From Gammaproteobacteria bacterium (GTDB taxonomy: Bacteria; Pseudomonadota; Gammaproteobacteria; Steroidobacterales; Steroidobacteraceae), in NCBI GenBank assembly GCA_025357915.1, contig JANYLH010000044.1, positions 14,390-78,389 on the forward strand: a stretch of DNA of 64,000 nt, in the 5' to 3' direction. A program made the translations under genes and the position numbers. The notes below the pieces were generated by a model. The model did no database searches and was not told the origin of the DNA. It worked only from the letters and a program-made list of their open reading frames with translations. Below are positions 33,252-51,974 of this stretch, in pieces. Every line of letters starts with the position of its first letter. The first letter of the stretch is position 1.

Positions 33252-34043
33252 ATGAACCGGCCGCACCCCGCTTTGTTCCTGGGTCATGGCTCGCCTCTCC
33301 ATGCGATCGAACCCGGCCGCTACACGGCGGCATGGGAGCAGCTGGGGCGCGAACTGCCGCGGCCACGTGCGATCGTGGCCGTCTCGGCGCACTGGTACAT
33401 CCGCGGCACGGCGGTCACCCTGCCGGCCATGCCCCGTACCATTCACGATTTCCAGGGCTTTCCGTCGGCTCTTTACGCCGTGCAGTACCCCGCGCCCGGT
33501 GACCCGCAGCTCGCCGCGCGCGTGGCCAGGCTCCTCTCGCCGACGCCCGTGCGGCTCGACCATGATTGGGGCCTGGATCACGGCACCTGGTCTGTGCTGC
33601 GCTACCTCTACCCCGATGCCAGCGTCCCCGTCATCCAGCTGTCGATCGATGCCGCATTGCCGGCGCAGCAGCACTACACGCTGGCGCAGCGGCTGGCGCC
33701 GCTCCGCGACGCGCGCATCCTGGTGCTGGGAAGTGGCAATGTGGTGCACAACCTGCGCGCCTTGCAGTTCGACGCGGCGGTGACGCCGCCTTCCTGGGCG
33801 ATCGGATTCAACAAGGCGGTGCGCGACGCGGTACTCGCGGGCCGTGACGAGGACCTGGCCGGCTACCAGACGCTCGATCCAGGCGCCGCACTCAGCGTGC
33901 CCACCCCCGAGCACTACCTGCCGCTGCTCTACGTGCTGGCGCTCCGGCGCGCCGGTGAGGCCGTGAGCGTGCCGATCGATGGGATCGACCTTGGGACCAT
34001 CAGCATGCTGAGTGTGCTGGTTGGCTCCCGGCAACCCGTATGA
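33252..34043 (+). CDS. ygiD: 4,5-DOPA dioxygenase extradiol family protein (YgiD-like)
   Basis: ALFLGHGSPLHAIE...VSAHW...LDHGTWSVL...GSGNVVHNL...EHYLPLLY, which are class III extradiol dioxygenase motifs. Confidence 0.85.
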   Translation: MNRPHPALFLGHGSPLHAIEPGRYTAAWEQLGRELPRPRAIVAVSAHWYIRGTAVTLPAMPRTIHDFQGFPSALYAVQYPAPGDPQLAARVARLLSPTPVRLDHDWGLDHGTWSVLRYLYPDASVPVIQLSIDAALPAQQHYTLAQRLAPLRDARILVLGSGNVVHNLRALQFDAAVTPPSWAIGFNKAVRDAVLAGRDEDLAGYQTLDPGAALSVPTPEHYLPLLYVLALRRAGEAVSVPIDGIDLGTISMLSVLVGSRQPV

Positions 34044-34053
34044 GGACGCTGGC

Positions 34054-36288
34054 ATGAGCGCGCTGCCAGGCCTGCTGCCGCGCCTGTGGCGTTTACGGCC
34101 GGGGCGCCGCTTTCTGCTCCGCCTGCTGCTCTCGGCGCTGCCACTCACGCTGCTGCTGCCGCATGCCTTCGGCCAGCTGCCGATCGGGTTTCTGCAGCGT
34201 TTCGAAAGTTACCTGTACGACGTCCGCGTCCGCTGGACCACGACGCCGGTTCGCGATCCGCGCGTCGTGATCGTCGACATCGACGAGGCGAGCCTCACGG
34301 CCGAGGGCGAGTGGCCGTGGTCGCGCGAGGTCTTCGCCCGACTGGTCGATCGCTTGTTCGACGACTACGGCGTGCGCGCGCTGGGCTTCGACGTCTTTTT
34401 TGCCGACCCGCAGCAGCCGGGTGCGCTCAGACTCCTCGACGAGCTCAGCCGGGGTTCACCGCCCGCGCTCGCCGCGCGCCTGGCCGGACTGCGGCCGCGC
34501 TTCGAGACCGACCGCGTCTTCGCCGAGGCGCTGATCGCCCGCGACACGGTGCTCGGTTACGTCTTCAAGCAGAAACTGCAGCCTGGGGACCGGCCTGAGA
34601 AGGGCCGGCTGCCGCGGGCGCAGCCGCTGTCGATGCCGCCCGGCGCGCGGCTGCTGCAGCCCGCTGGTTACGTCGCGAACCTCGGCGCACTGCAGGAGAA
34701 CGCCGCGGCCGGCGGCTTCTTTGACACCTCGCTGGTGGACGAGGACGGCGTGGTCCGCCGGATGCCCTTGCTCCAGTACTACGGTGGCCGGGTGTACGAG
34801 TCGCTGAGCCTCGCGCTGACGCGCCTGGCCCTGCACTCGCCGCCGCTGTCGCTCGGCATCGACCCGGCCACGGGCGCGTTGCAGGAAATCCATTTCGGCG
34901 AGCGGGTGGTACCGGTGGACCGTGCCGCCGCGGTGCTGGTGCCGTTCCGCGGACCGGTCGGCTCCTTTCCCTATGTATCGGTGACCCAGGTGCTGCACGG
35001 CACCGCGCCCGCAGCCACGCTCAAAGGCGCGATCGTGCTGGTGGGCGCGAGCGCTCCCGGGCTGCTGGACCTGCGTGCGACGCCGGTCGGCAAGGAGTAC
35101 ATCGGTGTGGAAGCGCACGCCAATGTGATCGCAGGGCTGCTGGACGGCACGATCCGTTACGTCCCGACCACGACGCCGTGGATCGAGGCCGGCACGCTGC
35201 TGCTGCTCGCGCTGCTGACCGCTGCGCTGCTGGCGCGTTCGCCACTCGCGGGAGTATTGACGGTCGCGGCGCTCCTCGCAGCGCTGTGCGCTGCCAATCT
35301 GCTCGCCTGGCAGCGCCTCGGAATCGTGCTGCCGCTCGCCTCGAGCCTGAGCTACGTGCTGGTCGCCGCACTGCTGCATCTCAACTACGGCTATTTCTTC
35401 GAGTCGCGCCGCAAGCGACGGCTCGGACGGCTGTTTGGGCAGTACGTCCCGCCAGAGGTCGTGCAGGATCTCGACGCCACCGAGACCGACATTTCGCTGG
35501 CCGGCGAGAGTCGCGTCATGAGCGTGCTGTTCTCGGACGTGCGCGGCTTCACGACCATCTCCGAGGGACTGGACCCGCGCTCGCTGAGCCAGTTCATGAA
35601 CGAGTTCCTGACGCCCATCACGGCCGTGATCCGCCGTCATCACGGCACCATCGACAAATACATGGGCGACGCCGTGATGGCCTTCTGGGGCGCGCCGCTC
35701 GCCGAGCCCGCCCACGCCGCGCGGGCCGTGCGTGCCGCCCTGGACATGGTCGCGTGCCTTGAGGGCGTCAACGCCAGCTGTCGCGCGCGCGGCTGGCCCG
35801 AGATCCGCATCGGCGTGGGCATCAGCTCCGGTCCCATGAACGTGGGCAACATGGGCTCCGAGTTCCGGATGGCCTACACGGTGCTCGGCGATACCGTGAA
35901 CCTGGGTTCACGGCTCGAGGGGCTCACGAAGGAATACGGCGTCGACATCATTGTCAGTGCCGCTACGGCCAGCGCGGTGCCGGAAATGGCTTTCCGGGAA
36001 CTGGACCTCGTGCGCGTCAAGGGCAAGCACGAGGCGATCGCGATCCTGGAGCCGCTCGGGCCGCGCGCCGGGCTGGCGCCCGCGACGCTCATCGCTTGCG
36101 AGGAGTTCACCGCCGTGCTTGTCGCCTACCGCAAGCGCGACTTCGCGGGCGCCGCGACGCGCTTGGCCGCACTGCGCGCACGCACGGATCATCGTCTATA
36201 CGAATTGTACGCGGCGCGGATCAGCGCTTACCTCGAGGCCCCGCCGCCGCCGGAGTGGGACGGAGTCTACACATTCACCAGGAAGTGA
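34054..36288 (+). CDS. CHASE2 sensor domain-containing class III adenylate/guanylate cyclase (adenylyl-type residues)
   Basis: An N-terminal TM is followed by CHASE2 (VVIVDIDEASLTAEGEWPWSREVFARLV) and three TMs. The cyclase domain has LFSDVRGFT, IDKYMGDAVMAFWG and YTVLGDTVNLGSRLE. Confidence 0.85.
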   Translation: MSALPGLLPRLWRLRPGRRFLLRLLLSALPLTLLLPHAFGQLPIGFLQRFESYLYDVRVRWTTTPVRDPRVVIVDIDEASLTAEGEWPWSREVFARLVDRLFDDYGVRALGFDVFFADPQQPGALRLLDELSRGSPPALAARLAGLRPRFETDRVFAEALIARDTVLGYVFKQKLQPGDRPEKGRLPRAQPLSMPPGARLLQPAGYVANLGALQENAAAGGFFDTSLVDEDGVVRRMPLLQYYGGRVYESLSLALTRLALHSPPLSLGIDPATGALQEIHFGERVVPVDRAAAVLVPFRGPVGSFPYVSVTQVLHGTAPAATLKGAIVLVGASAPGLLDLRATPVGKEYIGVEAHANVIAGLLDGTIRYVPTTTPWIEAGTLLLLALLTAALLARSPLAGVLTVAALLAALCAANLLAWQRLGIVLPLASSLSYVLVAALLHLNYGYFFESRRKRRLGRLFGQYVPPEVVQDLDATETDISLAGESRVMSVLFSDVRGFTTISEGLDPRSLSQFMNEFLTPITAVIRRHHGTIDKYMGDAVMAFWGAPLAEPAHAARAVRAALDMVACLEGVNASCRARGWPEIRIGVGISSGPMNVGNMGSEFRMAYTVLGDTVNLGSRLEGLTKEYGVDIIVSAATASAVPEMAFRELDLVRVKGKHEAIAILEPLGPRAGLAPATLIACEEFTAVLVAYRKRDFAGAATRLAALRARTDHRLYELYAARISAYLEAPPPPEWDGVYTFTRK

Positions 36289-36440: not shown

Positions 36441-37784
36441 ATGCAGCCATCACCTCGCCGGCGCCGTAGCTGCTTCGCCTGCGCCGTATTCACCCTGATG
36501 GCAATGACGGGACTGGCCCGTGCCACTGCGCCCACCGACCTCGACCTGCTCCTGGCGCAGTGCCAGTCGCAGCTCGACGCTGGCCACAGCGCCGACGCCT
36601 ACTCCCTGCTTTCGGCACATGAAGCGGAATTCGGCGGCCTCGCCGCCTTCGACTACCTCTACGGCATGGCGGCGCTCGACAGCGGCCACGCTTCCGAGGC
36701 CGGCTTTGCCCTGGCCCGCGTGGTGGCGATCGAGCCTGACTTCGACGGCGCGCGCATGGAACTGGCCCGCGCCTACTACGCGAGTGGCGACTACGAGTCG
36801 GCCCGCACCCAGTTTGCCTTCTTGCGCGAGCGCAGCCCACCGGCGCCCGCGCGCGCGCTCATCGATCGCTACCTTGCCGCCATCGACGACCATGTGGCCG
36901 TCTTGCGCCCGCGCCTGGTACTGAATTTCGATGGCGGCGGCGGCTACGACTCCAACGCCAATGGCTCGACCGCCGACCGGCAATTTCTCGGGTTCAATCT
37001 CGACGCCCGCAATGTGGCTGCCTCGACCGCGTTTGCCGATGCGACCTTCAGCGCGAGCTACGTGCGCCCGCAGGGGCGCCGCCTCGGCTGGACGGGCGAT
37101 CTGGCCGCGAACCAGCGCTGGAACCCCGGCGCTCACTTCGTTGACCAGTCGCTCCTGTCCGGCGCGCTGGCACTGGCCGGGCGGTTCGGCGAATGGCGGA
37201 CCGCGCTCGGCGTCAACGGCTATTGGGCCGCGCTGGATGGCGCTGGCCACGAGTGGAGCGGCAACGTGCAGGCGCGGGCGACGCATCCGATGGGCGCGCA
37301 CTGGTCTGCGACCAGCAGCGTCTCGTACGGCGCGCTGCGCTACCTGGATGAACGCCTCAGCCTGCTGGAGGTCAACCGCTTGCTCGGGAGCGTGCGGATC
37401 GACCGCGGCGGCCTCGCCGCCGGCGGCATCCTCTCAGTGACGCTGCTCGCGGGCCATGACAACGCGCAACAGGTCAGTTCACCGTATGGGGGTGCCCGCT
37501 ACGGCGCGCGCGCCTCTTATGCCTGGCAGGCGGGGCCGCGCGTCCGCGCGGTCGTCGACGCTGGCGGCCTGCGCAGCCGCTACGCGGGTGGTGCCGGTTT
37601 CTTCGGCCTCGCACGGCGCGATACCCAGTACTCGGCGCTGGTGCTGCTCGACATCGACGGCGCGCCGGCCGCGGGCTGGCACGTACAGCCGCGCCTGCGC
37701 TACACGCAGAACGACTCCAATGTTTCGCTCTACGCCTACGATCGCTGGGAAGCCGGCATTTTCCTGCACCGGACCTTTCACTAG
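36441..37784 (+). CDS. TPR + C-terminal beta-barrel outer-membrane protein, Slam/DUF560 (type XI secretion)-like
   Basis: A signal peptide is followed by a TPR-like N-terminal region of about 130 aa. The remaining roughly 300 aa are Gly/Asn/Tyr/Arg-rich with alternating-pattern segments. The size (447 aa) and architecture match Slam proteins. Family assignment is by pattern only. Confidence 0.5.
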   Translation: MQPSPRRRRSCFACAVFTLMAMTGLARATAPTDLDLLLAQCQSQLDAGHSADAYSLLSAHEAEFGGLAAFDYLYGMAALDSGHASEAGFALARVVAIEPDFDGARMELARAYYASGDYESARTQFAFLRERSPPAPARALIDRYLAAIDDHVAVLRPRLVLNFDGGGGYDSNANGSTADRQFLGFNLDARNVAASTAFADATFSASYVRPQGRRLGWTGDLAANQRWNPGAHFVDQSLLSGALALAGRFGEWRTALGVNGYWAALDGAGHEWSGNVQARATHPMGAHWSATSSVSYGALRYLDERLSLLEVNRLLGSVRIDRGGLAAGGILSVTLLAGHDNAQQVSSPYGGARYGARASYAWQAGPRVRAVVDAGGLRSRYAGGAGFFGLARRDTQYSALVLLDIDGAPAAGWHVQPRLRYTQNDSNVSLYAYDRWEAGIFLHRTFH

Positions 37785-37801: not shown

Positions 37802-39442
37802 ATGAGCGCACGCACCTGTCGCCGCACCGACCGCCGCCTCCAGATCCTGCTCAGGGTCATGGCGCTGCTCGCCTTCAGCCCCTGCGCGCTTGCCGCGCAG
37901 GCGGGCAAGATCGTATTCGTGGCCGGCAACGTAACGCTGGAGGCGAGCCACCGCCCGCTCCAGCGCGGCGACACACTCAACACCGGCGACACGGTCGTGA
38001 CTGCGGCGGGCGCCCGCGCGCAGCTCTTGATGGGCGACGGCGCGCGGATTGCACTGCGTTCGGGGTCGCGCTTTCGTATCGATGCGTTCGAGCTTGGCGC
38101 CGCGGTCAGGAACCCGGCGGCCACGGCGGTCGCGGCCTCGACCGGGCGGAGCCTGAGCACGCTGCTCAGCGGTGGTTTTCACACCGCCTCAGGCAGCATT
38201 GGCAAGGCAGATCCGTCCGCGTACGAGGTGCGCGTGCCGGTCGGCACGCTCGGCATCCGCGGCACCGACTACGTAGCGGTGTACTGCCGCAGCGATTGTA
38301 CCGATGCGCCAGGACTGAAGCCCGGTGAACCGGTAAGAGACGGCCTGTACCTTGGCGTCTACTCCGGCAGCATCGTGTTTCGCGGCGGTGACCTTGAAGT
38401 CGTGGTCGCGGCGGGCGAGTTCGTGTTCATACCGGTGCCCGAACTCAAACCCGAACGGCTCCAGCTGCCACCGGCGCCGATAGTCGGCGACGGTGCCGGA
38501 CCACTCGACCTGGCAGGCGCCACCGCGGGCGTGCAGGCGCGCCCCGCCGGCAAGCACTCGGGTTTCGGTGATTCCGGCGGGGGTCATGGCCCGGCTTCCC
38601 CCGTCACGGAGCCGCCGCCGCCAGCCAACGGCACGGTCCAGCCGGTGGGCGGATCGGTGAACGGCGTGCCGATCGATCTGACGCCGGGCCAGCTGCCCAC
38701 ACGCAACGATTCCACCTGGATAACCGGCCCGGTGCGCGGCCTGTTCAGTCCCGGCAGCAACGCCGCGGCCACGACGCAGTATGGCTTTGGCGGTACAGGC
38801 GGCGGCGCCACCGTGCTGCCCGTGCTGGGCGATGCGGGGGCCGCTTTGCTGCAGATCGGCACAGCCACCGCCAGCGAGTCGGGGTTCGATGCCGCGACCG
38901 GACTGCGCTGGGGTCGCTGGAGCGGCGGCAGCGTCAACCTCGTCACCGCAACCGGCGGCAGCGTGCCGGTGCCGCTCGGGAGCGACAGCGTGCACTGGGT
39001 TGCCGGAAGCGGCTACGTCGATGCTGCCATCCCGGTGCTGCCGGTCAGCGGCACGGCGACTTACAACCTCGCAGGCGCCACCCGCCCGACCGACGGCCTG
39101 GGCAACCTCGGCACACTCAACAGCCTTAAGCTGACCGCCGACTTCAGCGCGAACGCAGTGACCGCAGCCCTGGCGCTGACCATCGCCAACGTGGACTGGA
39201 TCGCCAGCGGCAACGGCTTCATCCTCGCGGGCTCGAAGACGACTGGCCCACAGTTCAACGGCGCGTTCGGCGCGCCCTCGATAGGCGGCTCCACGCAATT
39301 GGGCGGTGGCGGCCAGTTCAGCGGCTTCTTCAGCAATGTGCCCGGACAGGTATCGGGCGCGCCTGGCGCAGCCGGCATCTCCTATACCCTGTTCGCGCCA
39401 GGGGCTGGCACTGTATCGGGTGCAGCGGCACTCAGCCGATGA
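37802..39442 (+). CDS. secreted FecR-domain protein with TbpB/fHbp-like C-terminal 8-strand-barrel motif (candidate Slam cargo)
   Basis: It has a signal peptide and a FecR domain (GKIVFVAGNVTLEASHRPLQRGDTLNTGDTVVTAAGARAQLLMGDGARIALRSGSRFRI). The C-terminus reads GTATYNLAG...LTADFSANAVTAAL...GQFSGFF...GAAGISYTLF, like TbpB-type barrel domains. Confidence 0.6.
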   Translation: MSARTCRRTDRRLQILLRVMALLAFSPCALAAQAGKIVFVAGNVTLEASHRPLQRGDTLNTGDTVVTAAGARAQLLMGDGARIALRSGSRFRIDAFELGAAVRNPAATAVAASTGRSLSTLLSGGFHTASGSIGKADPSAYEVRVPVGTLGIRGTDYVAVYCRSDCTDAPGLKPGEPVRDGLYLGVYSGSIVFRGGDLEVVVAAGEFVFIPVPELKPERLQLPPAPIVGDGAGPLDLAGATAGVQARPAGKHSGFGDSGGGHGPASPVTEPPPPANGTVQPVGGSVNGVPIDLTPGQLPTRNDSTWITGPVRGLFSPGSNAAATTQYGFGGTGGGATVLPVLGDAGAALLQIGTATASESGFDAATGLRWGRWSGGSVNLVTATGGSVPVPLGSDSVHWVAGSGYVDAAIPVLPVSGTATYNLAGATRPTDGLGNLGTLNSLKLTADFSANAVTAALALTIANVDWIASGNGFILAGSKTTGPQFNGAFGAPSIGGSTQLGGGGQFSGFFSNVPGQVSGAPGAAGISYTLFAPGAGTVSGAAALSR

Positions 39443-39452
39443 GCCCGCGCCA

Positions 39453-41861
39453 TTGCTGACCGAGCGCGTCTCGATCGCAGTGATCGGCGCCGGCCCGGCC
39501 GGCCTTTCGGCCGCGGCCCACGCCGCCGACCTTGGCATCCCGCACCTGCTGCTCGAGGCGAGTCCGGGTCACGCCAACACCATCCGTAAATACCAGAAGG
39601 GCAAGCACGTCATGGCCGAGCCAGGGGCGCTGCCGCTGCGCAGCCCCCTGCCGTTTGCGGCCGCGGTCCGTGAGGCCGTGCTCGAGGGCTGGGACGCCGG
39701 ACTCGCGGCGCATCGCGTCAATGTCCGCTACGGCGCCGAGGCGGTCGCCATCAGCGGCTCGCGCCCGCAATTCCAGATCGCGTTGAAGGATGGCAGCGTG
39801 GTCCACGCCGAGTGCGTCGTGCTTGCAATCGGCGTGCAGGGAAATCCGCGCAAGTTGGGCGTGTCCGGCGAAGACCTGGCTTGCGTGCAATACCAGCTCG
39901 ACGATGCCGACGCCTATCGCGACGAGGCCATCGTCGTCGTCGGCGCCGGCGATGCCGCGATCGAGAACGCGCTGGCGCTGTCGAAGCGTAACCGCGTCTG
40001 CCTGGTGAACCGTGCCGCCGAGTTCTCGCGCGCCAAGGAAGGCAACCTGAGCGCGGTGCTCAAGGCAATCGAAGCCGGCACGCTCAGCTGCTTCTTCAAG
40101 AGCTCCTGTGCGCGCATCGAGGCCAGTGCCGGCGCGCAGCGAGGTTATCGCCTGACGCTCGACACCGATACCGGCGAGGCCAGCGTCGCGTGCGACCGGA
40201 TCATCGCCCGGCTCGGGGCCATCCCGCCGCGGCAATTTCTCGAGGCCTGCGGTGTCGGGTTCCCGGGGCCGCAGCCGACCGCGCTGCCTATCCTGTCCGA
40301 CCAGTACGAGTCGAGCGTGCCCGGGCTGTACGTGGTCGGTGCGCTCGCTGGCTATCCGCTGATCAAGCAGGCGATGAACCAGGGCTATGAGGCGGTCGAG
40401 TACAGCCGCGGGCGCGCTGTGGAGCCGGCCGACGAGCCGATCCTGCGCGAGCGGTTCGCACCGCTCCCCTTCGGCCTGACGGTCGCCGGCACGCTGGCGT
40501 TGATCCGCGAGCGCGTGCCGCTGTTCGCGGAGGTGAACCCGTTGCTGCTGCGCGAGCTGGTGCTGGGCAGCGAAGTCCACGCACCCGCGTCCGGCACCGT
40601 GCTGTTCCGCAAGAACGACTACACCAATTCGTTTTACACGATCATAAATGGCGGCGTCGACATGGAACTCGGCGACGAGGGCCAGCAACGCATAGCACTG
40701 CGCCAGGGTCAGTTCTTCGGCGAGGGGAGTCTGCTGTCCGGCCGTCGGCGCGCCGGCAGCGCGCTGGCCGGCGCCGGCTGCGTGGTGCTGGAGACGCCGC
40801 GCCGCGAGATCCTCAAGCTCATGAGCTCGGTCGACGGGGTCCGGCGCGTGGTCGACGAGCTGTTCATCATCCGCGCGATCCAGTCAAGCTTCGCGACCGA
40901 CGCCTCCTTCGACGAACTGCGCACGGTCGCCGCCGGCGCGCGGCTCAACCGCTACCGGCCGGGCGAGATGCTGTTCGAGGAAGGCGCGGTCGCCGACTGC
41001 CTGCACCTGGTGCGGAGCGGTTCGGTCGCGGTATTGCGCCAGCTCGGCGGGCGCGACGTCGTTACGTCGTATGTTGCCGCGGGCAACTATGTCGGCGAGA
41101 TCGGCCTGCTGGGCCGCACGCGGCGTACGGCGAGCGTGCGGGCGAACGTCGCCACCGAGACCGTGAGCATTGACGCCGCCGCCTTCGACCAGCTGCTGGC
41201 GCGCAACGCGGCGCTGCGCGAGCGCATCCAGGACACCATCCGTGAGCGGCTGGCCGCGAACGCGCGCATGCAGGGCCAGACCCAGGCGGGCGACCTGATC
41301 TCGTTTCTGATGCAGCAGGGCCTGGGGGAGGCCACCGACGTGCTGCTGATCAACGAGTCGCTGTGCGTGGGCTGCGACAACTGCGAGAAGGCCTGCGCCG
41401 AAACGCACGGCGGCACCTCGCGCCTCGACCGCGGGGCCGGGCCGAGCTTCGCGCAGGTGCACGTACCCACCTCCTGCCGGCACTGCGAGGACCCGCACTG
41501 CATGACCGATTGCCCGCCGGACGCGATCCGGCGCGCACCGGACGGCGAGGTGTACATCCGCGACAACTGCATCGGCTGCGGCAACTGCGAGCGCAACTGC
41601 CCGTACGGCGTGATCCAGATGGCCGCCGCGACGCCTGCCAAGCCCCCGCTGCTGGCGTGGCTGCTGTTGGGAAGCGGTCCCGGGCCCGGCGGCGTGGCCG
41701 GCGCGCCCGCCGACCCGCAAGCCGCGAAGAAGGCCGTGAAATGCGACATGTGCAAGGACCTGGGCGGCGGCCCCGCCTGCGTCCGCGCCTGCCCGACGGG
41801 CGCCGCGATCCGCATCAGTCCCGAGCGCTTCGTCGAGCTCGCCCATGGCAGCGATGTCTAG
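39453..41861 (+). CDS. fusion protein: FAD/NAD(P)-binding oxidoreductase + two cyclic-nucleotide-binding domains + four-cluster [4Fe-4S] ferredoxin (DmsB/NrfC-like)
   Basis: VIGAGPAGLSAA (FAD), VVVGAGDAAIENA (NAD(P)) and GLYVVGALAG are present. The cNMP motifs are FFGEGSLL... and YVGEIGLLGRTRRTASVRA. The Cys motifs are CVGCDNCEKAC, CRHCEDPHCMTDCP, CIGCGNCERNCP and CDMCKDLGGGPACVRACP. The start (TTG 39453) is inferred and uncertain. Confidence 0.8.
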   Translation: MLTERVSIAVIGAGPAGLSAAAHAADLGIPHLLLEASPGHANTIRKYQKGKHVMAEPGALPLRSPLPFAAAVREAVLEGWDAGLAAHRVNVRYGAEAVAISGSRPQFQIALKDGSVVHAECVVLAIGVQGNPRKLGVSGEDLACVQYQLDDADAYRDEAIVVVGAGDAAIENALALSKRNRVCLVNRAAEFSRAKEGNLSAVLKAIEAGTLSCFFKSSCARIEASAGAQRGYRLTLDTDTGEASVACDRIIARLGAIPPRQFLEACGVGFPGPQPTALPILSDQYESSVPGLYVVGALAGYPLIKQAMNQGYEAVEYSRGRAVEPADEPILRERFAPLPFGLTVAGTLALIRERVPLFAEVNPLLLRELVLGSEVHAPASGTVLFRKNDYTNSFYTIINGGVDMELGDEGQQRIALRQGQFFGEGSLLSGRRRAGSALAGAGCVVLETPRREILKLMSSVDGVRRVVDELFIIRAIQSSFATDASFDELRTVAAGARLNRYRPGEMLFEEGAVADCLHLVRSGSVAVLRQLGGRDVVTSYVAAGNYVGEIGLLGRTRRTASVRANVATETVSIDAAAFDQLLARNAALRERIQDTIRERLAANARMQGQTQAGDLISFLMQQGLGEATDVLLINESLCVGCDNCEKACAETHGGTSRLDRGAGPSFAQVHVPTSCRHCEDPHCMTDCPPDAIRRAPDGEVYIRDNCIGCGNCERNCPYGVIQMAAATPAKPPLLAWLLLGSGPGPGGVAGAPADPQAAKKAVKCDMCKDLGGGPACVRACPTGAAIRISPERFVELAHGSDV

Positions 41862-42744
41862 CATTCACGAGTCGGCCCTCGCCTACCGCGGGCGCCGCTA
41901 CCTGTGGGTCGCGCTGGCACTGACGGCAGCCTCCGTGCTCGCCTACGCGTGGCACTCGCCAGCCGTACCGCCGAACGGCGGCACCTGGCTGGGCTATACG
42001 CTGGGCACGGTCGCCGCGCTACTGATCCTGTTGCTGCTGGCGCTCGGCATCCGCAAGCGCAGCTACCACTCGACGCTCGGCACCGTCAGCGGCTGGGTAT
42101 CGGCGCACGTATACCTGGGGCTGGCACTGGTCGTGGTGGCCACGCTTCACACCGGGTTTCACTTCGGCCGCAACGTGCACACGCTCGCCTACGTGCTGAT
42201 GTGTCTGGTCATCGCACTGGGCATCGTCGGCGTCGTGCTGTACGCGCGCTACCCGGCCCGCATGAGCGTCAACCGCCAGGGGCGCGCACGCGCGCAACTC
42301 GTGGAAGAGGTCAACGATCTCAATGCCCGCGCACTGCGCGTCGCGCAACCGCTGCCCGCGGAATTCCTGGCGGCGGTGCGCAGCGCGCGCGACCGGCTGG
42401 TGCTCGGCGGCAACGCCTGGACGCTGCTCACCGGCCGCGACCGCTCCCGCGTCGTGCTGCCAGGGAGCGACGGCGCCAGCGCGCCGCTCGCCAACCCCTT
42501 TCAGGCGACGCTGATCGCCTGGCTTGGCGACCGCCTCGCGCGCTGCCAGGACGGCGAGGTGGCGCCGCGCATTCAGAGCCTGCTCACGCTCATCAGCGCC
42601 CAGCGGGTCGCAATCGAGCGCCTCAAACGCGACCTCGCCTTCCAGGCGCGGCTCGACGCCTGGCTGTATTTGCACGTGCCGTTGTCCTTCGCGTTGCTGG
42701 CCGCGCTCCTGGCGCATGTCGTCAGCGTGTTCCTGTACTGGTAA
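41845..42744 (+). CDS. integral membrane protein with two HX13H motifs (putative di-haem b, ferric-reductase/NOX-like transmembrane electron carrier)
   Basis: About five hydrophobic helices by eye. His88/His102 sit in helix 3 and His277/His291 in the last helix, each pair separated by exactly 13 residues. It overlaps the upstream gene by 17 nt. Confidence 0.7.
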   Translation: MAAMSSIHESALAYRGRRYLWVALALTAASVLAYAWHSPAVPPNGGTWLGYTLGTVAALLILLLLALGIRKRSYHSTLGTVSGWVSAHVYLGLALVVVATLHTGFHFGRNVHTLAYVLMCLVIALGIVGVVLYARYPARMSVNRQGRARAQLVEEVNDLNARALRVAQPLPAEFLAAVRSARDRLVLGGNAWTLLTGRDRSRVVLPGSDGASAPLANPFQATLIAWLGDRLARCQDGEVAPRIQSLLTLISAQRVAIERLKRDLAFQARLDAWLYLHVPLSFALLAALLAHVVSVFLYW

Positions 42745-42754
42745 GGCCTGCGCC

Positions 42755-44464
42755 GTGCGTACCCTGATCCGCTTCGTCAGCCGCGCCACAGGCGGTGCCG
42801 TCGAGACCAGCGAGCGGCTCTTCGATGGCGAGGCGCTCACTCTCGGCCGCGCCACCGACCAGGTGCTGCAGTTCAAGGACGGACGTGTGGCATTCCAGCA
42901 CGCGCGGATCTTCCGGCGGGGCAGCCGCGTGCTGCTCGCCTGCCGCGCGCCGGCGACCGTCATCGTCAACGACGCATTGGTGCGCGAGGCGGAGTTGTCG
43001 CTGGGCGACGTACTGCGTCTGGGCGCAAACGTACTCACGCTCATCGAGCCGCCCGCCGGCGCCGATCTCGCGCTGACCTTCGAGCTCGATCCGGCTGCGT
43101 CCGAGGCGGAACTCGCGACGGTCAATGCACCGCTCCTGCTCTCGGGCGGGCGGCTCGGCAAGCGCGGCTGGTCCTGGCTGCTGTTTCTCACACTGCTGGG
43201 CGCGTTCCTCGTGCTGCCGGTATTGGTGTTGCCTGCGAAGTCCACCCGCGAGGCGCTGCGCGCGAGCTGGCTGCCGAGCGATCACGCCTATTCGCCCGGC
43301 GCGCTGCACTCGGTGCACCAGACGATCGGCGGTCGCTGCGAGGCGTGCCACCAGCAGGCCTTCGTCCGGGTACGCAACGAGGCGTGCCTCGCCTGCCACG
43401 CGACGGAACTGCATCGGCACGTCGACGCGGGCAGCCCACGGGCGCGTGCAGTGGAGCAGATGCGCTGCCTTGCCTGCCATTCCGGCCACGAACCCGCGCC
43501 GTTGCTGCGCAGCGGCTCCGGCGGCTGCGTCGCTTGCCACGCTGACGTCTCGCTCGCCGGCGACCCGCACCGCCTCGGTGCCGTCAGCGACTTCGGTCGC
43601 GCGCACCCGGAGTTCCGCGTCACCTTGCTGCGCCCGGACGCCGCCGGCATCGCTGGCGCGAGTGAGCGGGCGCGCCTCGATGCGCCCGCGCTGCGCGAGC
43701 ACTCGCACCTCAAGTTCTCGCACGCGCAGCACCTCGATCCGCGGGGAGTCAAGACGCTGGACGGGCGCCGGGTGCTCGGCTGTGCCGATTGCCACGTGCC
43801 CGAGCCCGGCGGCGGGCGCATGTTGCCGATCCGCATGGCGGCGCACTGCCAGAGCTGCCACCGGCTCGACTTTGACCCGGCGTTCCCGGACCGCCAGCTG
43901 CCGCACGGCGATGTGACCGGGGCGGTGAACACGCTGTTCGAATACTACAGCGCACGCTACCTGGAGGGCTGGCCGGATCCGAACGCGCGAGCGTCCGCCG
44001 GGCGCTTCGCGGCGACGCCTGGACCCGCGCTGGCACCGGCCGAGCGTGAGCGCCGGCTCGGCCTCGCACGCACGCGCGCCGCAGTGGTCGCGCGTGACCT
44101 CATCGAGCGGCGCGCCTGCGTCGTGTGTCATGAAGTACGCGTGGTCGCGGACGCGGCGCTGCGCTGGCAGGTCACGGCAGTACGGCTCACGCACGCCTGG
44201 TTCCCGGCTGCGCGGTTCGATCACGCGCAGCACACCACTACGCTGACGCCGTGCTCCTCGTGCCACGACGCGGCACATTCCACACAGTCCGCGGACGTGC
44301 TCATGCCACGCATCGCGACCTGCCGTCGCTGTCACGCGGGGAGCGGCGGCGCGGCGCCGCCCGCCGGCAAGGTGGCGACCGGATGTCCGGCCTGCCATGC
44401 GTTCCACGACCCGCGGCGCGCGCCCTGGGTTCCGGTGGCGCAGCCAACGGATCCGGGACGGTGA
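42755..44464 (+). CDS. FHA domain - single TM - decahaem c-type cytochrome (cytochrome c3/c7-like)
   Basis: An N-terminal FHA-like fold (LTLGRATDQVLQFKDGRVAFQHARI...VIVNDALV...LSLGDVLRLGANVL) is followed by a TM (WSWLLFLTLLGAFLVLPVLVLPA). Ten CXXCH motifs follow: CEACH, CLACH x2, CVACH, CADCH, CQSCH, CVVCH, CSSCH, CRRCH and CPACH. GTG start at 42755. Confidence 0.85.
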   Translation: MRTLIRFVSRATGGAVETSERLFDGEALTLGRATDQVLQFKDGRVAFQHARIFRRGSRVLLACRAPATVIVNDALVREAELSLGDVLRLGANVLTLIEPPAGADLALTFELDPAASEAELATVNAPLLLSGGRLGKRGWSWLLFLTLLGAFLVLPVLVLPAKSTREALRASWLPSDHAYSPGALHSVHQTIGGRCEACHQQAFVRVRNEACLACHATELHRHVDAGSPRARAVEQMRCLACHSGHEPAPLLRSGSGGCVACHADVSLAGDPHRLGAVSDFGRAHPEFRVTLLRPDAAGIAGASERARLDAPALREHSHLKFSHAQHLDPRGVKTLDGRRVLGCADCHVPEPGGGRMLPIRMAAHCQSCHRLDFDPAFPDRQLPHGDVTGAVNTLFEYYSARYLEGWPDPNARASAGRFAATPGPALAPAERERRLGLARTRAAVVARDLIERRACVVCHEVRVVADAALRWQVTAVRLTHAWFPAARFDHAQHTTTLTPCSSCHDAAHSTQSADVLMPRIATCRRCHAGSGGAAPPAGKVATGCPACHAFHDPRRAPWVPVAQPTDPGR

Positions 44465-46434
44465 AGCGCGCATCGGCCTGTCTCGCTCCACTGGCGGCGC
44501 TGACGTTGTCGGCCTGTGGCGGTGGGGGCGAAGTCGCTTCGGGTGTGCCCACAAGCCCGCCGCCCCCGGGCCTGGTCTGTACCGGCCAGTGCGCGAATGC
44601 CCTCACGCTGCTGTCGCAGGCGGACGTGGAGCGCACGATCGCGCAGGCGGTCGCCGAGGCGCAGGCCCGCGGCGCGCACGCCACCGTCGCGGTTGTCGAC
44701 CGCGTTGGCAACGTGCTCGGTGTGTTCCGCATGAATGGCGCGGCGAATACCGTCACGATCGGGTCGGGACTGGCCACAGGCGGTCTCGAGAACGTCACGA
44801 TTGTCCCTGACACAGTCGCGGCCATCGCCAAGGCCGTGACGGCGGCATACCTGTCGAGCGAAGGCAATGCGTTCTCGACCCGCACAGCGAGTCAGATCGT
44901 GCAGGAGCATTTCAATCCGGGCGTAGCGCTGGCGCCGGGCGGTCCGCTGTTCGGCGTGCAGTTCAGCCAGCTGCCCTGCTCCGATCTGATGGCGCGGGCG
45001 GGAGCCGCGCCCGCCCCTGGCCCGCAGCGCTCGCCGCTGGGCCTCGCGGCGGATCCGGGTGGCCTGCCGCTCTACAAGGCCGGCACGCCGGTGGGCGGCG
45101 TGGGCGTAATCGCCGATGGCCGCTACGGGCTGGATCGCAACGTGCTCGACACGGACGTGGATCTGGACGAAACGATCGCGCTCGCCGCGACCTTTGGGCT
45201 CGCGGCGCCCGACGATCGCCGCGCCGACCGGATCACGGCTGATGGCAGGACGCTGCGTTTCAGCGATGCGACGGTGGCGACGCTCGCCAGTGCGCCCGCT
45301 GCTGCGCCGTCATTCGCGTCCCTGGACGGCGTCGCGGGTCACCTGCTTGCAGTGCCCGGCTACGGCGCAGCGACGACGCGCGCGGGCCTCGCGTATGGCA
45401 CGAGCGCCTCGGGCATCCGCTCCGATGCCAGCGACTACCCGGGACTCGACGCGCAGGTGCTGGTGGACGCGAGCGATGCGCCCCGCTATCCGCCGCGCGC
45501 CGGCAGCGAAACCTCGGGTGCACTGAGTGCGACCGAAGTGCGCGAGATCCTGCGCGCGGCACTCGGCGTGGCGAACCGCACCCGCGCCCAGATCCGCCTG
45601 CCGCTTGGCTCGCAGGCGCGCGTCACCGTCAGCGTCGTCGACAGTCAGGGTGTAGTCCTCGGAATAGCCGCTATGCGCGACGCACCGGTATTCGGCGTCG
45701 ACGTCTCGCTGCAAAAGGCGCGCTCGAGCGCGTTCACGAGCTCGGCGGCCGCGGCCGCGGCACTCGCGGCTGCGCCCGATGCGGTCTATCTCGACGGTGG
45801 ACTGAGTGTGCTCGCGCGGGTGCCACTGGCCAGCTACGTGACGGCGACGCGCGCATTCCTGGGGTTGCCAGCAGCGCTCGGCGACGGCGGCGTCGCCTTC
45901 AGCGCGCGCGCGCTGGGCAACATGGCGCGACCGTTCTATCCCGACGGCGTCGACGGCACCCATGCCGGACCCTGGTCCAGGCCGGCCGCGGCGTGGAGCC
46001 CGTTCAGCACCGGCTTACAGCTGGATCTGGTTTATAACGCCCTGGTGCAGCATGTCGCCTTCGTGCTTGGCGCGGCACCCGACGTGGGCTTCAGTTGCAC
46101 CGGTGTCAGCGGCTTTGACACCGGCTTTGCTCCCGCCGCGCCCATCCCGGCGCTCGCCAATGGCCTGCAGATCTTTCCGGGCGGCGTGCCGATCTATCGG
46201 GACCACACGCTGGTCGGCGCGATCGGCGTGTCAGGCGATGGCGTCGACCAGGATGACATGATCGGCTTCCTGGGCGTCGATAGCGCCGCGCAACGCCTCG
46301 GCGGCTTCGGCAATGCGCCGCCCGACCTGCGCAGCGACACGCTGGTGCCGCGCGGCGCGCGCTTGCGCTATGTCGGCTGCCCGGTGGCACCGTTCCTCGA
46401 CTCGTCGACGCAGGACGAGTGCAGTGGCCGCTAG
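44461..46434 (+). CDS. lipoprotein with two GlcG/HbpS-like (DUF336, haem-binding/degrading fold) domains
   Basis: A lipobox (LTLSAC). Domain 1 reads LSQADVERTIAQAVAEAQARGAHATVAVVDRVGNVLGVF...GGLPLYKAGTPVGGVGV. Domain 2 reads VTVSVVDSQGVVLGIAAM...GGVPIYRDHTLVGAIGVSGDGVDQDDMI. GTGA overlap with the upstream stop. Confidence 0.7.
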   Translation: MKRASACLAPLAALTLSACGGGGEVASGVPTSPPPPGLVCTGQCANALTLLSQADVERTIAQAVAEAQARGAHATVAVVDRVGNVLGVFRMNGAANTVTIGSGLATGGLENVTIVPDTVAAIAKAVTAAYLSSEGNAFSTRTASQIVQEHFNPGVALAPGGPLFGVQFSQLPCSDLMARAGAAPAPGPQRSPLGLAADPGGLPLYKAGTPVGGVGVIADGRYGLDRNVLDTDVDLDETIALAATFGLAAPDDRRADRITADGRTLRFSDATVATLASAPAAAPSFASLDGVAGHLLAVPGYGAATTRAGLAYGTSASGIRSDASDYPGLDAQVLVDASDAPRYPPRAGSETSGALSATEVREILRAALGVANRTRAQIRLPLGSQARVTVSVVDSQGVVLGIAAMRDAPVFGVDVSLQKARSSAFTSSAAAAAALAAAPDAVYLDGGLSVLARVPLASYVTATRAFLGLPAALGDGGVAFSARALGNMARPFYPDGVDGTHAGPWSRPAAAWSPFSTGLQLDLVYNALVQHVAFVLGAAPDVGFSCTGVSGFDTGFAPAAPIPALANGLQIFPGGVPIYRDHTLVGAIGVSGDGVDQDDMIGFLGVDSAAQRLGGFGNAPPDLRSDTLVPRGARLRYVGCPVAPFLDSSTQDECSGR

Positions 46435-48226
46435 CGCAACTCGCGCCTGCGCGTGCGCGCTGGCCCTCGCCGGTGCGGGTCTTGCCACCGGCGTGGTCCG
46501 CGCCGGAGACGGGAGCACGACCGCGCCCTGCCCGCCCGAGTCCCCGGTCGCGGCCGAACGCAAGGCACCGGCGGTACCCGAGCTGCCCGGCTTCGCGCCC
46601 ACGCCGTGCAATCCGGCCGCGCTACCCCCACCGCGCGCGGACCAGCCGGGGACGCTCGCCGGGCTCCCGGATCGCTGGCGCATGGTCTCGACGCTGGGGT
46701 ACCCCGAGCGGCTCCACGACCCCTACCACGGCAACAACTGGTTGAAGGGCGATCGCCCGGCGTTCGGTGCTGACTGGTTCGTCAACCTCGCGGCGGTCGC
46801 GGATACCGTCGTCGAGCCCAGGCGCTTCCCGCTGCCAGTCGGCAACGTCGTCACCGAACGCCCGGGGAGCCTCGACGCCTACGGGCACGGCGCGAGCCAG
46901 CTCTATGCCCAGACCCTCGCCTTCGAGGCCGTCCTCTATCAGGGCGATACCGTATTCAAGCCGCCGGAGTGGGAGTTTCGCCTCACGCCCGTCTTCAGCG
47001 TCAATCGTGTCGAGGTAGGCGAGCGCGGCCTGGTGAACGCCGCCGCAGGCGCGCCGCTGTCGCGCACCGACACGGCGCTCGGGCTGCAGGCGGCGTTCGT
47101 CGATCGCCATCTGCGCAATGTTTCCGCGCACTACGATTTCGACAGCCTGCGCGTCGGCATCCAGCCGGTGACCGCGGACTTCCGCGGCTTCCTCTACACG
47201 GATGCGGCGCTAGGCGTGCGGCTGTCTGGCAACCGGGCCAACAATCGCTACCAGTACAACTTGGGTTGGTTCCGTCGCCTGGAGAAGGACACCAATTCCG
47301 GACTCAACGACGTGTTCGCTCGTGGCCTCGCCTCACTGCGCCATGACAGCGTAGTGCTCGCCAACCTGTACGCGCAGGACACGCCACTGCCCGGTTTCAC
47401 CTCGCAACTGGTGGTGGCGTACAACCGCAACCGGGAAGGCGGCGAACTACGCTACGACGGCAACGGCGCGCTGCAGCGTCCGGCGCAAATCGGTGATGGC
47501 CGCGGCCGCGACTACCAGGTGACCTACCTCGGCGTCAACGGCGATGGCCATGTCGGCGTGCTCAACGCGACCATTGCCGGCTACTTCGTATTCGGGCACG
47601 AATCGCGCGGCACCTTCGCCGCCGCCGCAGACCAGGTGCGCGCCTTCTTCGCAGCCGCCGAAGTGTCGCGCGACTGGGACTGGCTACGGGTCCGCGCTTC
47701 GATCGCGCTGCAGAGCGCCGATCACGATCCATTCGACCGGCGTGCCACCGGGTTCGATGCGATTGTAGAGAACCCGTTGTTCGCCGGCGCCGATACCAGT
47801 TTCTGGATCCGTCAGCCGGTGCCACTGATTGCCGGCGGCGGCGTATCACTGTCGGGTCGCAACGGCCTGCTCAGCTCGTTGCGCTCCTCGAAGGAATTCG
47901 GCCAGTCCAACTTCACCAACCCGGGACTGCAGCTGGTTGGCGTCGGCGCCGACGCGGACCTCACGCCGACGCTGCGGGTCAGCGCGAACGCCAACGACCT
48001 GCGCTTTGGCGACACGGCGGTGCTCGAGGTGGCGCGCGCGCAGGCATCGATCCCAAGACGCATCGGGCTCGACCTCTCGCTCGCGCTCAGCTGGCGTCCC
48101 CTCGCCACGCAGAACGTGGTCGCACGCCTGTCGGCCGCGAAGCTGCTGCCGGGCAGCGGCTGGAAAACGCTTTATGGCGGCGAGCAGGGCTATTCCATTC
48201 TCGGCAACCTGATACTGAGCTACTGA
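46424..48226 (+). CDS. putative outer-membrane beta-barrel protein (unassigned family)
   Basis: A signal peptide (ACACALALAGAGLATGVVRAGD). It contains abundant alternating aromatic/polar stretches such as YQYNLGWFRRLEKD, YQVTYLGVNGDGHVGVLNATIAGYFVFG and LDLSLALSWRPL. The C-terminus is aromatic (NLILSY). The GTG start at 46424 overlaps the upstream gene. Confidence 0.55.
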   Translation: MAASATRACACALALAGAGLATGVVRAGDGSTTAPCPPESPVAAERKAPAVPELPGFAPTPCNPAALPPPRADQPGTLAGLPDRWRMVSTLGYPERLHDPYHGNNWLKGDRPAFGADWFVNLAAVADTVVEPRRFPLPVGNVVTERPGSLDAYGHGASQLYAQTLAFEAVLYQGDTVFKPPEWEFRLTPVFSVNRVEVGERGLVNAAAGAPLSRTDTALGLQAAFVDRHLRNVSAHYDFDSLRVGIQPVTADFRGFLYTDAALGVRLSGNRANNRYQYNLGWFRRLEKDTNSGLNDVFARGLASLRHDSVVLANLYAQDTPLPGFTSQLVVAYNRNREGGELRYDGNGALQRPAQIGDGRGRDYQVTYLGVNGDGHVGVLNATIAGYFVFGHESRGTFAAAADQVRAFFAAAEVSRDWDWLRVRASIALQSADHDPFDRRATGFDAIVENPLFAGADTSFWIRQPVPLIAGGGVSLSGRNGLLSSLRSSKEFGQSNFTNPGLQLVGVGADADLTPTLRVSANANDLRFGDTAVLEVARAQASIPRRIGLDLSLALSWRPLATQNVVARLSAAKLLPGSGWKTLYGGEQGYSILGNLILSY

Positions 48227-51200: not shown

Positions 51201-51974
51201 CTCACCTGGAACCCCGGCGGAGTGCTGCGCGGCGCGCGACACCTCGCCATCGGCGGCCGCTACCTCTACATCGTTGCCGACGCGGGCCTGATCGTTGCCG
51301 ACTTCCAGGATCCGCTCGCCCCGCGCGTACTCGCAACCGTCCCGCTGGACGACGCGCGCGCCGCGATGCTGCAGTTCCGCTATCTGTTTGTCACCGACCG
51401 CAGCGGGCTCGCGGTCATCGACGTCACGCATCCCGAGGGGCCACGCCTGGTGCCCGGCGCGCGCGTGCCGCTCGCCGACGCGCACAAGCTGTTCGTGTCG
51501 CGCACCTACGCCTGGGTGGCCAATGGTCGCGAGGGCCTGGCGATCATCGATGTCGAGAAACCCGAGGCGCCACGCCTGTTCCGGAACTTCAACGCCGACG
51601 GCGCGCTCGGCGATTCCCGCGACGTGGTGCTCGCGGCGACCAATGCCTCGTCATTCGCCTACGTGGCCGACGGCGCGGGCGGACTCAAGGTGATCCAGAC
51701 GATCGCCCCGGACACGCAGCCCGATTTCTACGGCTTCGCGCCCGAACCCCGGCCGCAGTTGATCGCGAGCTACCGCACGGCGGCCCCGGCCCTCGCCCTG
51801 TCGCGGCCGCTTGAGCGCGACCGCGCGGTGGACGAGAGCGGCGGGCAGGTTGCAGTATTCGGCCGCCGCGGCTCACGACCGTTTACTCTGCAGGAGATGC
51901 AACGCATGTACCTCGACGCAGCGGGTAACCCGTGGTTCGTCAGCGATTCCACGGCCCCTGGAGCGCCGCGATGA
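48234..51974 (+). CDS. 1246-aa secreted decahaem c-type cytochrome fused to a C-terminal LVIVD-repeat beta-propeller
   Basis: It has a signal peptide. Ten CXXCH motifs are spread over about 800 aa: CISCH, CTDCH, CGACH, CSACH, CMVCH, CVDCH, CKDCH, CYSCH, CGGCH and CSDCH. About six LVIVD-type repeats follow: GGLRVYDIASI, EGLILVDIDTL, AGLIVADFQDPLAP, SGLAVIDVTHPEGP, EGLAIIDVEKPEAP and GGLKVIQTIAP. Confidence 0.85.
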   Translation: MRHYTILLAFTTLACLARGAPAQAAADEETPVERAWVTAPSAPASQTQSAADAKSEGCISCHAASDAASMHAAKAVVLGCTDCHGGDASVRWRGAASKSDPQYSASRDRAHVLPRFPASWHYPDSANPERSYTLLNREAPEFIRFKNPGDYRIAREACGACHLRIIEAAERSLMSTNAMFWGGAAYNNGILPFKNYLLGEGYTREGKSTVIEGPPLTPEEALQHGILPRLYPLPRFETIRPGDIFRVFEDGGRNISNLFPETALPNVSGELERLEEPGRPDIRQSNRGPGTGARIAVPVLNIHKTRLNDPLAWFLGTNDQPGDYRSSGCSACHVVYANDRDPAHSGPYARYGHEGTSQQRDPVIPRDRPGHALQHAFTRSIPSSQCMVCHMHQPNMFMNTFYGYTMWDYESDAPSMWPGQQRYPTADETRAVLDRNPEGAAPRGNWADPGFLSRVWELNPGLKDTQFADYHGHGWNFRAVFKRDRHGHLQDSAGAIVANDDPQKWAKVVHMASVHVDVGMHCVDCHYGQDAHGTGHIHAEVAQAVEIDCKDCHGTVRAYPTLRTSGPAAGPNGTDLATIRNPDGRLRFEWRDGKLLQRSAVDPAREWVVSLVKDSVTPGNPRYNPRAARAKLMARDPLGQKWGTDVAWPQLAHSDDNMECYSCHTSWTTSCGGCHLPIEANWKSEKHRFEGGTSRNYASYNPQVARDDMFLLGRRGPVENGKIAPVRSSSALVLSSTNANREHIYVQQPPIAASGFSSQAMNPHYPHTERKTETKTCSDCHLAATRDNNAIMAQTLGQGTQYINFVGLNAYLGTERAVAAVQVTEWEEPQAVIGSYLHRYAYPDYYAAHLARGRQLTNAATHASGPASCVQQRGEYLYASEGHGGLRVYDIASIANKGVSARILSAPFSPLGHDTHVTTRDASCVVLATTQPVQPSRNQGALMREANLEQPFLDVYRYAFITDRVEGLILVDIDTLMDGNFRNNQLRRALTWNPGGVLRGARHLAIGGRYLYIVADAGLIVADFQDPLAPRVLATVPLDDARAAMLQFRYLFVTDRSGLAVIDVTHPEGPRLVPGARVPLADAHKLFVSRTYAWVANGREGLAIIDVEKPEAPRLFRNFNADGALGDSRDVVLAATNASSFAYVADGAGGLKVIQTIAPDTQPDFYGFAPEPRPQLIASYRTAAPALALSRPLERDRAVDESGGQVAVFGRRGSRPFTLQEMQRMYLDAAGNPWFVSDSTAPGAPR

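Follow-up and report, generated by a model that had tools for sequence, protein, structure and literature searches.

What is the 299-residue membrane protein encoded by the open reading frame (ORF) at positions 41845-42744 of a 64-kb stretch of Steroidobacteraceae DNA (contig JANYLH010000044.1 of assembly GCA_025357915.1; G+C content 68%; hereafter the window), and between which partners might it carry electrons? The ORF stands between a gene for a cytoplasmic protein with flavin and iron-sulfur (FeS) domains, which we call the flavo-FeS protein, and a gene for a decahaem cytochrome c. An original prediction, made from the bare sequence, had taken its product for a carrier of two b-type haems of the NOX/ferric-reductase type, separated from its dehydrogenase. 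The comparative analysis presented here suggests that the protein is probably a di-haem b cytochrome of the inner membrane, passing electrons from the flavo-FeS protein, which would oxidise the reduced nicotinamide dinucleotides NADH or NADPH (NAD(P)H), to the decahaem cytochrome. It very probably represents a separate, unannotated family of di-haem cytochromes b, judging from its sequence relatives, in which the positions of the histidines and the orientation in the membrane resemble those of ferric reductases.

The ORF encodes two exact HX13H motifs, with 13 residues inside each of the pairs H88/H102 and H277/H291. Translation confirms both motifs and the CAC codons originally read for His88 (42106-42108) and His102 (42148-42150); His277 is encoded by CAC at 42673 and His291 by CAT at 42715. 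Both pairs lie within hydrophobic stretches (Kyte-Doolittle windows 80-107 and 270-299), and the AlphaFold2 helices 79-103 and 239-298 agree with their earlier placement in hydrophobic helices. Because 1.9% of composition-preserving shuffles of the protein also contain at least two HX13H pairs, the motif count by itself is weak evidence, and it is conservation that carries the weight.

More than 5400 relatives, every one labelled hypothetical, came up in a word-indexed search. When 1.84 billion cluster representatives were searched exhaustively with HMMER, 2048 matched at E ≤ 1e-3 and 204 at E ≤ 1e-30, which puts the size of the family at 2048 clusters at the level of 50% identity; at least 574 matching stretches occur in a collection in which each bacterial and archaeal species is represented by one genome. 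Thirteen columns are invariant in a 60-sequence alignment reaching down to 32% identity, five of them being H88, H102, H112, H277 and H291. Among 270 relatives covering the same range, these residues are kept in 264 of 265 (H88), 268 of 269 (H102), 267 of 269 (H112), 239 of 239 (H277) and 238 of 238 (H291) sequences, and the remaining histidines of the protein (H8, H37, H75 and H106) vary freely; H37 is conserved in only 56%, leaving helices 1 and 2 without a conserved histidine. What helices 2 and 4 do carry are conserved pairs at i/i+14, namely G54 (100%) with G68 (96%) and H112 (99%) with G126 (100%). The histidine pairs H88/H102 and H277/H291 are thereby accompanied by G54/G68 and H112/G126 on the other two helices, and because all these i/i+14 pairs match, helices 2-5 appear to mark the same two membrane depths, as in four-helix di-haem bundles.

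The distribution of conservation along the chain follows a similar outline. Mean identity to the majority residue is 0.67-0.75 in helices 2-5 and highest, at 0.85, in the periplasmic loop 104-110, with lower values for helix 1 (0.54) and for the insert that precedes the last helix (0.46). Beyond the four presumed ligands, H112, S86, R72, N110, Y133 and P137 are invariant. When the insert is cut out, the helix 2-3 hairpin aligns in register with the helix 4-5 hairpin (hhalign E 7e-4), W84xxxH88...H102 falling on W273xxxH277...H291; the alignment probability is only 26%, so that the match hints at an internal repeat of two hairpins without proving one.

Hydropathy and an AlphaFold2 model built from 33 sequences (mean predicted local distance difference test score, pLDDT, 84; predicted template modelling score, pTM, 0.74) together give five membrane helices at about residues 18-37, 48-73, 79-103, 111-135 and 270-298. 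The model shows the first four as separate helices with these limits, followed by a mostly helical soluble region with two short strands (137-233) and a long helix (239-298), of which the last 28 or so residues are hydrophobic; the chain ends directly after helix 5, at W299. A soluble insert before the last helix had been predicted and is present, with a size of about 130 residues (136-268), not the 115 first estimated. Positive charges gather in three places, the N-terminus (R15, R17, R18), the segment R70-K71-R72 and the stretch following helix 4, and loops 38-47 and 104-110 contain none and one, respectively. Because of this positive-inside pattern, the N-terminus and the insert are predicted to be cytoplasmic and the C-terminus periplasmic.

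A natural gene fusion points the same way. In one relative (P0239; L087:10001-13333), a flavo-FeS protein with cyclic-nucleotide-binding (cNMP) domains is fused in frame, through a short linker, to helix 1, and because a protein that binds flavin adenine dinucleotide (FAD), NAD(P)H and cyclic nucleotides is necessarily cytoplasmic, so is the N-terminus to which it is joined. The fusion is followed only by a gene for a multihaem protein with an FHA domain; its host is probably an anaerobe outside the Gammaproteobacteria, since the contig carries corrinoid methyltransferase genes. A 474-residue relative (P0211) was considered as a second fusion and ruled out, its additional part being a low-complexity Arg/Pro-rich tail typical of a frameshift. 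Given a cytoplasmic N-terminus, helices 3 and 5 are predicted to run parallel and to hold their histidine pairs at equal depth: H88 and H277 would be some six residues away from the cytoplasmic end, H102 and H291 about twenty residues in.

The fifth invariant histidine, His112 (42178-42180), did not figure in the original prediction. It stands where helix 4 begins on the periplasmic side, exactly 14 positions ahead of the invariant G126. It is not required for bis-histidyl ligation of two haems, and might instead touch a haem propionate, serve as an alternative ligand or belong to the electron exit site.

Does the protein then belong to the ferric-reductase superfamily (NOX/FRE/STEAP/MsrQ; PF01794), as its first label implied? 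By definition, this domain has six helices, the third and fifth of which carry bis-histidyl motifs (PMC5676040). In agreement with this, the ORF product has bis-histidyl motifs with 13-residue spacing on membrane helices 3 and 5, which are predicted to be parallel; its predicted N-terminus is cytoplasmic, as in the superfamily. Its helices number five rather than six. The Pfam hidden Markov model Ferric_reduct scores 17.6 bits against a cut-off of 28 (E 0.004, residues 53-132) and matches only 4 of 60 relatives at E ≤ 0.1. As a noise control, we counted matches of unrelated membrane families in the same 60 relatives, which reach 5-9 of 60 in Pfam (9 of 60 for DUF202) and up to 7 of 60 in NCBIfam; because these families match as often, the Ferric_reduct signal is indistinguishable from noise. 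With a sub-threshold profile, one helix too few and no ferric-reductase domain among the Foldseek matches listed, the NOX/ferric-reductase family label could not be upheld, and the comparisons do not show membership of this superfamily.

The same profile searches, which left Ferric_reduct at noise level, did turn up recurrent weak matches to the family of prokaryotic cytochrome b561 and Ni-hydrogenase cytochrome b (PF01292). This family matches 38 of the 60 relatives (best E 3.8e-8, the listed scores lying below the 30.1-bit cut-off), and its label is precomputed on one close relative; the 299-residue protein itself gives no PF01292 match at E ≤ 0.1. DUF4405 (PF14358) scores 20.5 bits on the protein against a cut-off of 26.7 (E 7e-4, residues 80-107, that is, helix 3) and matches 16 of 60 relatives, on helix 3 or helix 5, with a best E of 4.1e-5. 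As far as profile scores can tell, the PF01292 and DUF4405 signals stand above the noise baseline and the Ferric_reduct signal does not. The ligand layout of PF01292, with four helices and ligands on helix 1, helix 2 and twice on helix 4, nevertheless differs from the five helices and the 2+2 arrangement on helices 3 and 5 found here. NCBIfam gave nothing for the protein and only noise across the 60 relatives, and hhalign comparisons with E. coli CybB and MsrQ and with their alignments gave nothing either, the profiles being shallow (relatives listed at 74% identity or more). No Pfam or NCBIfam model exists for the family, and its members are annotated as hypothetical everywhere.

We then compared the gene neighbourhoods of 84 related loci, found with a search seeded by a family alignment. 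A flavo-FeS gene lies upstream in 80 of the 82 loci in which this could be assessed and a multihaem gene downstream in all 81 assessable loci. The order flavo-FeS gene, di-haem gene, FHA-multihaem gene, HbpS-like gene, barrel candidate and large cytochrome is near-universal in this set, the hosts of which include Steroidobacteraceae, Acidibacter, Woeseiaceae, Arenicella, Alcanivorax, Lysobacterales and Nevskiaceae. In relatives at 32-36% identity, the three-gene core is kept and the outer genes are replaced or absent. The genes of the window are collected in Table 1.

Table 1. Genes in the neighbourhood of the putative di-haem cytochrome b gene (coordinates are positions in the window)
Feature	Coordinates	Strand	Basis
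CHASE2-adenylate/guanylate cyclase	34012-36288	+	
TPR protein	36441-37784	+	
FecR-domain protein	37802-39442	+	
Cytoplasmic dehydrogenase (flavo-FeS protein): TrxR-like FAD/NAD(P)H domain, two cNMP domains, C-terminal ferredoxin domain	39306-41861	+	
Putative di-haem cytochrome b, 299 residues	41845-42744	+	ORF translation, hydropathy, AlphaFold2, conservation
Decahaem protein: N-terminal cytoplasmic FHA-like domain, one membrane helix (about 138-160), periplasmic domain with 10 CXXCH	42755-44464	+	
Probable lipoprotein, three HbpS-like (PF03928) stretches; start codon inferred	44461-46434	+	
Secreted protein, signal peptide, C-terminus GNLILSY; start codon inferred	46424-48226	+	
Secreted cytochrome c of 1246 residues, 10 CXXCH, short ExtM-like stretch, faint LVIVD matches	48234-51974	+	
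Cytochrome c554-like protein, 4 CXXCH and one CX4CH; start codon inferred	51971-53272	+	

Both immediate neighbours of the ORF are as originally described. The upstream gene overlaps it by 17 nucleotides (8 if Met4 is the start), and the downstream gene, which starts 11 nucleotides past its stop, encodes ten CXXCH motifs and a single membrane helix, in agreement with a membrane-anchored decahaem cytochrome. The true start of the flavo-FeS gene is probably near 39420-39480. Its product has the Rossmann motifs GAGPAG at 61 and GAGDAA at 213 and lacks a CxxC pair, and for the latter reason we read it, from its sequence, as a flavoprotein other than a disulfide reductase. Its flavin part has YpdA/Bdr and the TrxR-like ferredoxin-NADP reductases as closest solved relatives. 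The C-terminal domain contains 16 cysteines in four [4Fe-4S] cluster motifs of the HycB/ArrB/DmsB type, its closest solved relatives being HycB, HycB3/4 of HDCR and ArrB. In about 20 of the 84 loci, as well as in the window, the cyclase, TPR and FecR genes stand upstream of the core; because this trio recurs there and the flavo-FeS protein has two cNMP domains, a dedicated cyclic-nucleotide input from the one to the other is suggested.

Taken together, conservation, topology, gene order and the natural fusion give good support to the original proposal of a putative bis-haem b carrier between the flavo-FeS protein and the decahaem cytochrome, and from them we infer the following mechanism. Helices 2-5 would form a four-helix bundle in which helices 3 and 5, parallel to each other, both point from the cytoplasm towards the periplasm, H88 and H277 ligating a haem on the cytoplasmic side and H102 and H291 one on the periplasmic side, with small or polar residues of helices 2 and 4 at both haem depths (G68/G126 and G54/H112). 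The upstream protein, translationally coupled to the di-haem protein, would bind it from the cytoplasmic side, and the 130-residue insert, which stands where NOX has its D-loop, is a candidate surface for the docking of either the FeS domain or the FHA-like domain. Electrons would pass from NAD(P)H to FAD, through the four [4Fe-4S] clusters to the cytoplasmic and then the periplasmic haem b, and exit through the conserved periplasmic loop 104-110, with H112 nearby, to the anchored decahaem cytochrome c; in the source genome, a putative outer-membrane barrel and further multihaem cytochromes could take them onward. Such a route would make no use of the quinone pool. Because electron export from the negative side consumes membrane potential, it would suit regulated electron disposal, comparable to that by eukaryotic FRE and NOX, for example the reduction of extracellular metals or other acceptors, and not energy-conserving respiration, and the cNMP domains, with a cyclase operon nearby in some genomes, may allow gating by cyclic nucleotides.

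Several points weigh against this interpretation. The assignment of haem in this family rests on comparative evidence and is unproven, and the 299-residue protein exceeds no curated Pfam or NCBIfam family threshold. Profile searches of the PDB with two family profiles returned chance matches to pilin and coiled coils and no cytochrome b. Foldseek searches of the PDB found no ferric reductase or cytochrome b among the matches listed for the full model (best E 0.39; the matches, none of them significant, are dominated by long helical bundles such as BAR domains, TorS and PilJ that match the insert) or for a model of helices 1-4, built to remove the insert (pLDDT 90.7; best E 0.63, again not significant), although small helical bundles modelled without their haem are a weak point of Foldseek. 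Contact between helices 3 and 5, like the distances between their paired histidines, is a prediction from topology, the role of H112 is left unexplained by a two-haem model, and both the direction of flow and the lack of a quinone site are argued from energetics and domain content only. The null results would also fit a haem-free protein, without significant similarity to any haem protein family or structure, in which the histidines bind another metal or are structural and which serves as a tether for the FHA-cytochrome and the FeS protein. The preprint discussed below likewise gives no InterPro match for the probable homologue from Ferrigenium straubiae, a homology drawn from description only. 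Four invariant histidines at two matched depths on parallel helices, with glycines at the same depths, would however be unexpected for a scaffold, and a tether of this kind would leave a gap of about 30 Å between the cytoplasmic FeS clusters and the periplasmic c haems; we therefore regard such a protein as very improbable.

The location of the module between a flavoprotein and a multihaem cytochrome raises two further questions, whether quinone takes part and in which direction electrons flow. A quinone-reactive cytochrome b could sit between the quinone pool and the decahaem cytochrome, like the b-domain of CbcL or FdnI/HyaC, the flavo-FeS protein turning the module into a junction of the NAD(P)H:quinone or quinol:cytochrome c kind. 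The nearest Pfam family, PF01292, does consist of quinone-reactive anchors paired with four-cluster FeS subunits, the invariant H112, S86, R72, N110, Y133 and P137 could line a quinone site, and the Ferrigenium preprint links what is apparently the same module to quinone. Against this stand a chain from FAD through four FeS clusters and two haems b to ten haems c that is complete without quinone, a ligand pattern and topology unlike those of PF01292, with 2+2 histidines, parallel helices and five helices in all, and the finding of no quinone-site motif in the 299-residue protein, on balance making a quinone reaction unlikely. The preprint also bears on direction: an architecturally identical trio occurs in this Fe(II) oxidiser, is expressed in all conditions tested and is discussed there as an uptake wire, so that extracellular or periplasmic donors such as Fe(II) might feed electrons inward through the multihaem protein and the b haems to the FeS-flavoprotein. 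Transfer from donors at the level of Fe(II) to NAD(P)+ (-320 mV), from the positive to the negative side, would be strongly uphill, however, with no obvious energy-coupling element in the module, and the hosts are mostly heterotrophic Gammaproteobacteria (among them Steroidobacteraceae, Lysobacterales, Alcanivorax and Arenicella); we hold inward flow to be improbable, and continue with outward transfer from NAD(P)H to the decahaem cytochrome as the preferred explanation.

The remaining genes of the cluster add some observations of their own. In the FHA-like domain of the decahaem protein (42755-43200), the GR motif is kept and AFQHA stands in place of the canonical SRxHA; relatives also match the YscD-type FHA-like model, and it may be a phospho-independent docking module. 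The lipoprotein has the lipobox LTLSAC and, in Gammaproteobacteria, its gene is always found between the decahaem gene and the barrel candidate. The product of the latter (about 600 residues) matches nothing in Pfam, NCBIfam or the PDB, keeps an identity of 48-92% within the cluster and is likely, by inference, an outer-membrane beta-barrel. Among the related loci, only two (L035 and L082) have enough flanking sequence and yet no flavo-FeS gene immediately upstream, and in L082 the cyclase, TPR and FecR genes lie upstream on the opposite strand. In a relative of 34% identity (L090:10616-14478), the core is followed by genes for a PP2C phosphatase, a double-FHA protein and a Ser/Thr protein kinase, which points to phospho-signalling around the module in some lineages. 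Four of the loci (L012, L018, L028 and L025) come from metagenome-assembled genomes titled Klebsiella pneumoniae, Bordetella parapertussis or Rheinheimera tuosuensis, taxonomic labels that are almost certainly wrong in the public records.

To our knowledge, the inner-membrane entry points to extracellular electron transfer described so far (CymA, ImcH, CbcL, CbcBA and NetBCD) all draw on the quinone pool. Cytoplasmic NAD(P)H wired directly to periplasmic multihaem c through a di-haem cytochrome b would be a different solution and, if borne out, a bacterial counterpart of NADPH-oxidase-type wiring that went unrecognised before. Because it would dissipate energy, tight regulation is to be expected, which the cNMP and FHA domains would fit. 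We can go one step further, tentatively and with somewhat less than even confidence, and suggest that the core is a quinone-independent, cyclic-nucleotide-gated exporter from NAD(P)H to the periplasm, a functional analogue of eukaryotic NOX/FRE built from unrelated parts, namely a TrxR-like flavoprotein, an FeS wire of four clusters, a new family of di-haem b proteins and a multihaem c anchored with an FHA domain. In many Gammaproteobacteria, it would feed a dedicated porin-cytochrome conduit through which extracellular substrates are reduced under regulation. With a cofactor and an electron path assigned in this way, many multihaem gene clusters could be interpreted, both in Gammaproteobacteria of soil, fresh water and the sea and in iron oxidisers.

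How does this arrangement compare with known systems? Like NOX, DUOX and FRE (PF01794), including SpNOX, the protein has a cytoplasmic N-terminus and bis-histidyl motifs on helices 3 and 5, running from inward to outward with 13-residue spacing (PMC5676040). It shares with them the proposed pair of stacked haems leading outward from cytoplasmic NAD(P)H and FAD, and a cytoplasmic loop between helices 4 and 5 that faces the dehydrogenase. Unlike them, it has five helices, the 130-residue insert in the 4-5 loop and no significant sequence or Foldseek similarity. In place of the fused FNR-like domain of NOX, which reduces haem directly, the flavoprotein here is TrxR-like and a chain of its own, with four FeS clusters interposed on the way from flavin to haem, and the acceptor would be a multihaem cytochrome instead of O2 or an Fe(III) chelate. 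MsrQ (YedZ) with Fre is likewise a split system: the haem protein of the membrane receives electrons from a distinct flavoprotein in the cytoplasm and hands them to a redox partner in the periplasm (PMC5676040). MsrQ is, however, a bona fide PF01794 protein with six helices, flavin mononucleotide, the molybdoenzyme MsrP as partner and no FeS wire, and its alignment shows one conserved histidine on helix 3.

The PF01292 proteins FdnI, HyaC and CybB are likewise di-haem anchors with an HX13H helix (H137/H151 in CybB, where the alignment has H13, H45, H137 and H151 as invariant histidines). Their partners are FeS subunits with four clusters, FdnH in the case of FdnI. Apart from their ligand layout, set out above (four helices, with ligands on helices 1, 2 and two on 4), they differ in that this FeS partner is periplasmic and the anchor quinone-reactive, the FeS partner here being cytoplasmic. 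DUF4405 has been described as the two-helix, two-histidine half of cytochrome b561 (PMC5898192). Helices 3 and 5 of our protein both match its second helix, which would fit a build from two hairpins, although there is an extra first helix, the large insert splits the second hairpin and the matches are sub-threshold.

In general design, the module follows a principle found in DsrMK(JOP), Tmc, Hmc and NarGHI, namely a cytoplasmic FeS protein combined with a di-haem b membrane subunit, to which the complexes of sulfate reducers (DsrMK(JOP), Tmc and Hmc) add a periplasmic multihaem cytochrome c. The cytochromes b of all these complexes are of the NarI type, with a different histidine spacing and a periplasmic N-terminus, and their cytoplasmic partners are HdrD-like proteins or molybdoenzymes, not NAD(P)H flavoproteins. 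A cytochrome b of NarI type was itself considered for the ORF and rejected for the histidine spacing of that type and the opposite location of its N-terminus. In the cytochrome b of bc1 and b6f complexes, two alternate helices of a four-helix di-haem bundle likewise each have two histidines 13-14 residues apart, and the other two have conserved glycines at i/i+14. Helices 3 and 5 are oriented in the membrane opposite to helices B and D of that protein and there is no sequence match, and the likeness is best taken as an analogy of design, not as membership.

Literature searches for this combination of domains gave no description of the system except one preprint, and the family was not found described as a cytochrome; the Tenderiales uet cluster is a different system. 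The preprint describes, in Ferrigenium straubiae, an FHA-nonahaem cytochrome c beside a five-helix membrane protein and a [4Fe-4S] protein (bioRxiv 10.64898/2026.01.22.701106, section 6.3.2). Its authors report no InterPro match or redox motif for the membrane protein, which they regard as perhaps a binding platform, and propose inward flow to quinone (bioRxiv 10.64898/2026.01.22.701106). The three-gene architecture, the cytosolic FHA domain on the multihaem protein and the five-helix partner are shared, and, compared by description and not by sequence, the Ferrigenium trio is very probably the same module. Where the preprint of 2026 treats the membrane protein as a non-redox scaffold, our interpretation would amount to a testable correction. 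Set beside all these systems, the putative di-haem protein stands for a new family, and with its two partners it follows a known principle in a new arrangement.

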